A stretch of 64,000 bases of DNA, taken from the NCBI RefSeq assembly GCF_000027125.1, contig NC_017626.1; one strand, 5' to 3'. The DNA comes from Escherichia coli 042 (GTDB taxonomy: Bacteria; Pseudomonadota; Gammaproteobacteria; Enterobacterales; Enterobacteriaceae). The notes under the pieces are model-generated. The model was not told the DNA's origin, did no database searches, and worked only from the letters and a program-made list of their open reading frames with translations. Of this stretch, positions 24,034 to 24,119 are shown one piece after another. Positions within the stretch are counted from its first letter, which is position 1, and each line of letters begins with the position of its first letter. Made by a program: the position numbers and the translations under genes.

Positions 24034-24058
24034 TTTAGTTATATGTTTAGTTATACGG
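24034..24058. repeat. left boundary direct repeat (putative attL)
   Basis: ttttagttatatgtttagttatacg matches 31999-32023 at 23 of 25 positions; an inverted partial copy ccgtataactaaaac lies at 24077-24091. Confidence 0.5.
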
Positions 24059-24119
24059 TCTGGCGGGTAGCTAAACCCGTATAACTAAAACCTGTTTTTT
24101 CCCGTGGATTCAAAAACGT

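Follow-up and report, generated by a model that had tools for sequence, protein, structure and literature searches.

A PICI-type island in the 3' end of proL of Escherichia coli 042, with tandem 12-mers inside its ends as predicted arm-type integrase sites

Results

Layout of the locus

The DNA analysed here, referred to as the window, is a stretch of 64,000 nucleotides from contig NC_017626.1 of Escherichia coli 042. An intact proline tRNA gene is followed in it by an integrase gene and the rest of a small island. The features that define the island and its ends are listed below in window coordinates.

23837..23913, plus strand: proL, tRNA-Pro(GGG), intact (ARAGORN)
23899..23915, plus strand: attL core, the 17-bp identity block CTCTCGTGCCGACCAAA, made up of the last 15 nt of the tRNA and AA; homology to island-free genomes ends here
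23916..32092, plus strand: island of about 8.18 kb, PICI type, delimited by homology breakpoints
23944..23987, plus strand: island-borne putative intrinsic terminator, a 14-bp perfect inverted repeat and then a T-run
24034..24057, plus strand: P' arm, a tandem pair of direct 12-mers, putative arm-type Int sites; the most conserved P'-arm block across 10 distinct arm sequences
24064..24075, minus strand: P' arm, degenerate inverted 12-mer with 3 mismatches, perfect in the related loci L002-L004
24078..24089, minus strand: P' arm, inverted 12-mer without mismatches, located 30 bp 5' of the int start codon
24120..25364, plus strand: int, P4-type tyrosine integrase, 414 aa (Pfam and phrog_1)
25617..25808, plus strand: alpA-like gene for an HTH protein that may be an excisionase or a regulator (matches to phrog_66 and phrog_2790, "excisionase and transcriptional regulator")
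32000..32023, plus strand: P arm, a tandem pair of direct 12-mers that end 61 bp short of the core, putative arm-type Int sites
32055..32067, plus strand: IHF-like site AATCATGCAGTTA, between the P-arm sites and the core
32085..32095, plus strand: attR core remnant, CTCTCGTG and GCC; an intact attR has CCGACC there, a net loss of 3 bp
32106..32136, plus strand: native proL terminator, directly after the tRNA in K-12 and displaced here by 8.2 kb

The island genes run in the order int, alpA-like, repressor-like, DUF4222, DUF927 primase, SSB, ProQ/FinO-like, and PerC-like. Among the 10 ORFs tested, PHROG matches pointed to integrase, excisionase/regulator, primase, and SSB functions, and none to phage structural genes. 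Judged by its int-alpA-primase layout, its length of 8.18 kb, and relatives that have been tabulated as PICIs, the island is a member of the Gram-negative PICI family. The integrase carries the Pfam domains Arm-DNA-bind_3 (residues 8-94, 6.5e-25), Phage_int_M, and Phage_integrase. A comparison of Int with a phage collection, aimed at finding a free element sequenced with its attP, gave a best match of only 55% identity. The island also contains two iteron clusters, GGGACAAG/GTGGGAC, at 29302-29444 and 31587-31728, with more than 10 copies in all and in both orientations; one lies directly 3' of the primase gene and the other near the right end, and they probably represent the island's replication origin or origins.

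Two 25-mers, identical at 23 of 25 positions, occur at 24033-24057 and 31999-32023. The first-pass annotation of this DNA had described this pair with the correct identity and right-hand coordinates, but with the left copy at 24034-24058, and it was also right that each copy contains a tandem duplication and that an inverted copy lies beside the left one. The repeating unit is the 12-mer TTTAGTTATAYG, present five times at no more than one mismatch in the whole 64-kb window, at 24034-45 (+), 24046-57 (+), 24078-89 (-), 32000-11 (+), and 32012-23 (+), where 0.28 copies are expected by chance and none of 100 shuffles reached five. The degenerate inverted copy at 24064-24075 is additional to these.

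Island boundaries and the empty site

Both junctions were compared against 5,426 complete E. coli genomes. The left-flank query was matched by 5,425 of them, and in 445 the match extends into the integrase. In the remaining island-free genomes (about 4,980), the left match stops at query position 516, equivalent to window position 23915 and 2 bases past the tRNA, while the right-flank match begins at window position 32085 and overlaps the tRNA-Pro annotation. The empty site of the K-12 lineage strain C600 reads ...GGTTCAAATCCTCTCGTGCCGACCAAAAATCCCAAGAAAAAACCAACCCTTACGGTTGGTTTTTTT..., in the order tRNA, AAAATCCC, and native terminator, the terminator following the tRNA directly. The proL tRNA is intact in all loci compared.

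These breakpoints place the 12-mers inside the island, 118 bp from attL and 61 bp from attR. Island-free genomes lack both the 118 bp that precede the left repeat and the 61 bp that follow the right one, and the 6.5-kb empty locus of C600 has no copy of the 12-mer, even at two mismatches. The first-pass annotation had taken the 25-bp repeats as the bounds of the island and suggested that comparison with an island-free strain would show whether a single copy serves as attB. The claim fails by that comparison because K-12/C600 has no copy at all. The repeats are thus not att ends, because island-free genomes lack a copy and homology breaks at 23915 and 32085. The island is integrated in the ordinary P4-type fashion in the 3' end of proL, and the 25-bp repeats lie inside it.

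The DNA immediately 3' of the tRNA is likewise part of the island. The hairpin at 23944-23981, previously taken as the tRNA's own terminator, is missing in island-free strains and is island DNA. It lies about 30 bp after the regenerated tRNA, has a predicted fold of -22.9 kcal/mol (z = -4.8), and persists in 6 island variants, where 2 pairs show compensatory changes; K-12 is without it. The island supplies proL with a replacement terminator after integration.

Short repeats flank the island terminator, at 23926-23940 and 23989-24003 in the window and at 5284-5320 and about 5372-5400 in locus L002. Their sequence tracks the AlpA type: TCATCGTT in the window, CACCGGA (five copies) in L002-L004, and ATCGGTA in L005. 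We regard these repeats as candidate excisionase/RDF sites, for which they appear a better fit than the 12-mers.

The integration core

The window's attL reads ...CTCTCGTGCCGACCAAA / TCGACC..., and its right junction reads ...AAACTA / CTCTCGTG / GCC / AAAAATCCCC... A second, eroded copy of the tRNA 3' end, CTCTCGTG followed by GCC and AAAAATCC, is thus present at 32085-32105, 61 bp beyond the right repeat. The first-pass annotation had reported no second copy near the right boundary; it was missed because the right copy has eroded to CTCTCGTG and GCC. Nor does the broader statement hold that no duplicated tRNA 3' end bounds the island. An island of the same type is found in strain AL.H8, where the integrase is 97% identical to that of the window and genes for the DUF927 primase, DUF4222, SSB, ProQ/FinO, and PerC are present; in this relative CTCTCGTGCCGACCAAA is perfectly duplicated, with one 17-bp copy at each end. 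The displaced tRNA 3' fragment at the distal end is perfect in 11 E. coli genomes, including the window-type island of AL.H8, and the window keeps CTCTCGTG with an eroded remainder.

A contig from a viral database, L009, shows the two arms on one molecule. It has the P-arm 12-mers and, 61 bp beyond them, CTCTCGTGCCGACCAAA and TCGCCC..., which are succeeded by the terminator, the P'-arm 12-mers, and the beginning of int; more than 3 kb of island sequence lies on either side of the junction. This is the sequence expected of attP. L009 may represent a tandem island-island junction instead of a free circle, and in both of these the sequence would be that of attP. The outer 240-420 bp at the ends of the L009 contig duplicate internal island segments, which suggests assembly chimerism. 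At another contig end (L023), the P arm is of the same type as in L009 and the core reads CTCTCGTGCCAATA before the stored sequence ends. CTCTCGTGCCGACCAAA is common to attL, the attP-like junction of L009, and the attB of K-12. The true core is the 17-bp tRNA 3' end CTCTCGTGCCGACCAAA, not the 12-mers.

The alternative that the 25-bp repeats are themselves the core, with recombination inside them and the tRNA and next 120 bp belonging to the host, has a published precedent. Fillol-Salom et al. 2018 (PMC6092414) list E. coli PICIs at yejM-narP (EcCIATCC25922, EcCIED1a.1, EcCI11128, EcCI11368.1, and SdCI1012) in Table S1, where essentially these tandem 12-mers stand under "att site core" for the yejM-luxR group, including EcCIATCC25922, EcCIED1a.1, EcCI11128, and others. 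The repeats are also the longest direct repeats flanking the int-bearing segment. We nevertheless consider this alternative highly improbable: it is at odds with the zero copies in island-free genomes, with the missing 118 bp and 61 bp outside the repeats, with the two repeat sets lying around a tRNA-like core on the single L009 molecule, and with the perfect 17-bp tRNA duplications found further out in relatives.

Conservation of the 12-mers on both arms

The comparison covered the window and another 37 loci, drawn from genomes of E. coli, viral contigs, metagenomes, and E. albertii. The distance from the last P-arm 12-mer to the core is exactly 61 bp in 33 of 33 loci, which represent 17-18 distinct P-arm sequence variants. 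The 12-mers are the best-conserved block of each arm, with a mean column identity of 0.97 as compared to 0.85 for the spacer and 0.66 upstream. They flank the core on both sides in the attP-like junction of L009 and are absent from the K-12 attB.

Tandem and remnant copies do exist at this site, such as a 1.4-kb remnant in strain JSMCR1, and they lend some colour to the idea that an earlier element, through nested or tandem integration, left behind the segments between core and repeats, so that the 12-mers would end a younger island. However, the arm layout and the 61-bp spacing are identical in every island type and in the attP-like junction, and the 12-mers directly abut host DNA at no locus compared. 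We therefore give this explanation very little credence.

An IHF-like site lies between the P-arm sites and the core. It was recognised by its match to the relaxed IHF consensus WATCANNNNNTTR, and its AAATCA....GTTA columns are conserved across 18 of 18 P-arm types. No equivalent was found in the P' arm.

The island of locus L005 offers a view of how the 12-mers change. There, TTTAGCTAYACG replaces TTTAGTTATACG at every position and on both arms, and the N-terminal domain of its integrase is the most diverged, at 77% identity. That Int, rather than AlpA or another island protein, binds the 12-mers is what we infer from their position and from weak covariation across three sequence types.

A different binder is conceivable, namely that the 12-mers serve AlpA (Xis-like) or a repressor-like protein as operators or recombination-directionality sites. 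The left cluster is just upstream of int, AlpA homologues are reported to control int in P4-like elements (PMC6092414), and in KplE1 the RDF sites too sit within the att arms (PMC2951348). The sequence types fit this poorly: the window and L002 have the same 12-mer though their AlpA proteins are only 60% identical, and L005 has a different one though its AlpA is closer (71-76%) to those of the window and L002. The separate short repeats between core and 12-mers vary with AlpA type and make better RDF candidates, and both the fixed 61-bp spacing and the IHF-like site fit arm-type Int sites. A role for the 12-mers as AlpA or repressor sites is therefore unlikely, though not negligible.

The reading that we prefer, and consider likely, is that the 12-mers are arm-type integrase sites on both arms of attP, the P' cluster doubling as an int operator. 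The first-pass annotation had suggested an atypical att core or arm-type sites. Its second suggestion agrees with the spacing, the conservation, and the arm-binding domain; the first is dropped, the core being a tRNA 3' end and the att site architecture classical.

Erosion of attR

Of about 449 E. coli genomes that bear the island, no more than 11 retain attR in its intact form. Exact-junction searches in E. coli genomes, used to count the attR states, gave the following numbers.

attR intact: 11 genomes
attR with a 1-bp deletion: 32 genomes
attR with a 2-bp deletion: 95 genomes
attR with a 4-bp deletion: 148 genomes
attR with a 5-bp deletion: 45 genomes

The deletions are nested and span 1-12 bp, and all begin right after CTCTCGTG and run into the displaced tRNA fragment. 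In 31 integrated loci, gathered by a pattern that did not include the core sequence, CTCTCGTG itself is intact in 31 of 31 and is followed by a ladder of CGACC, GACC, ACC, CC, C, nothing, or ATCCC. An ascertainment bias from a scan that required CTCTCGTG was rejected, as a pattern of the P arm only gave the same 7 viral loci. An initial impression that attR is never intact (0 of 31) was overturned by the 11 intact copies from the targeted E. coli search.

The different states occur in nearly identical islands. One 11.5-kb island, with at most 2 substitutions between copies, has kept attR intact in strain GN02050 but lacks 2 bp of it in ATCC 25922 and 4 bp in L010, where the host background is a different one. 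The islands of ATCC 25922 and GN02050 are 1 SNP apart while their chromosomal flanks have diverged by 0.3-0.9%. In-situ deletion within one clone was rejected for this pair; the two are separate acquisitions because the flanks differ to this extent despite the 1-SNP island. The attR deletions recur, seemingly within the time needed for 1-2 substitutions at most per 11.5-kb island. This island encodes a capsid and is found in L003 (ATCC 25922), L037 (GN02050), and L010, the last with flanks unlike E. coli, and its near identity suggests that it spread very recently between hosts.

Several causes of the deletions were considered and set aside. Microhomology fits just the 4-bp class (CCGACC to CC) and at most 1-2 others, and was rejected as a general cause. 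Random mutation followed by selection for stability should mostly strike the 1.2-kb int, yet int is usually intact. An association of intact attR with a dead int, which would be expected if the integrase itself erodes the site, was not supported: int is annotated as intact in 4 of 5 inspected islands (AL.H8, NE 1092-2, GN02050, and Z1323HEC0108); JSMCR1 has the sole truncated int among the five. The JSMCR1 remnant (L035, 1.4 kb) consists of attL, the P' arm, an N-terminal Int fragment, the P arm, and a perfect attR; this island has lost internal sequence, and its two att sites are intact.

A site-specific, integrase-associated error at a cleavage position beside CTCTCGTG is favoured because the deletions recur, microhomology explains few of them, and int is usually intact. 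Under this tentative explanation, which we put forward as possible and not as probable, the attR junction would be a mutational hotspot and its deletions footprints of faulty cleavage and rejoining by the integrase, marking cleavage between CTCTCGTG and CCGACCA, and would act as a one-way ratchet that locks islands in the chromosome. In the literature, of which our coverage is incomplete, we found no earlier description of such small attR deletions. If the erosion is real, it could offer a natural read-out of the integrase cleavage site, and it could explain why most copies of an apparently intact satellite cannot excise.

Discussion

The features at this locus can be joined in a model of integration. 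A P4-type tyrosine integrase would insert the 8.2-kb PICI-type island (23916-32092) into the 3' end of proL, with crossover within the 17-bp CTCTCGTGCCGACCAAA shared by the element and the tRNA. The integrated island provides the DNA immediately 3' of the tRNA, the new terminator included. The P arm forms the right end of the island, where 61 bp separate two direct 12-mers from the core; the P' arm forms the left end, immediately 5' of int, and has two direct and one or two inverted 12-mers about 120-175 bp from the core. The N-terminal domain of Int would bind the 12-mers, and a bend at the IHF-like site in the P arm would allow one Int molecule to bridge arm and core and an intasome to form. 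Between the P' cluster and the int start codon the distance is 30-85 bp, and Int bound to this cluster would probably also repress its own gene, as in KplE1 and P4. This autoregulation through the P' cluster is conjectural because no sigma-70-like int promoter was detected in 23780-24200; the same scan did not pick up the island terminator either, which has a loop of more than 8 nt.

The first-pass reading of the 25-bp repeats amounts to an independent match to the published core assignment, and the comparative data contradict both. The "att site core" tabulated by Fillol-Salom et al. 2018 appears to be a mis-assignment of arm sites. The entries for EcCIDI14 (CGGTGTAGTTAATGGTGTAGTTAATT) and NmCIFF6 (TTTGGTAACACGTTTAGTAACAC), also tandem 12-13-mers tabulated as cores, may be arm sites and may need the same correction. 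Island coordinates, attB/attP primers, and claims on the sites that PICIs share with prophages or keep from them should be anchored on the proL 3' end. The finding itself is modest; the correction of the published core and the anchored erosion of attR add moderate interest.

Among known systems, the predicted att layout most closely resembles that of KplE1 and also matches those of lambda and P4.

P4 and P4-type integrases reportedly use the asymmetric 3' end of tRNA genes. Like the satellite phage P4, the island matches the tRNA 3' end, CCA included, over a block of about 17-20 bp, restores the tRNA, and encodes an Int with the same domain architecture. The targets are different, leuX in P4 and proL here, and P4 is a plasmid-prophage, whereas the window carries a PICI.

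The attP of lambda consists of P1, P2, H1, the core, and P'1-3, and its integrase is heterobivalent. Two arm sites on one arm and at least three on the other are common to lambda and the predicted layout, the integrase here is likewise predicted to be heterobivalent, and the IHF-like site would correspond to the IHF-type site of lambda between arm sites and core. In contrast, the lambda core is outside tRNA genes and its arm sites belong to one family of orientations, while the P' copies here are both direct and inverted.

In KplE1 (CPS-53, IntS/TorI, argW; Panis et al. 2010, PMC2951348), the P' arm sites are located in attL, which overlaps the promoter of intS, a gene subject to autorepression. 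Integration in the window is likewise in a tRNA 3' end, int adjoins attL and is directed away from the tRNA, attL holds the putative P' sites and extends over the expected promoter region of int, predicted arm sites are present on both arms, and Int has an N-terminal arm-binding domain. The two systems differ in the tRNA (argW as compared to proL), in the integrase, and in the arm-site sequence. Here, moreover, a terminator hairpin lies between the core and the P' sites, and the binding and autoregulation are predictions for the window.

The yejM-narP PICIs share with the window island the locus, the integrase family, the flanking 12-mers, and the int-alpA-primase layout; L003, of strain ATCC 25922, is the island EcCIATCC25922. 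The window island has a DUF927 primase and is without capsid or terS, unlike L002-L005.
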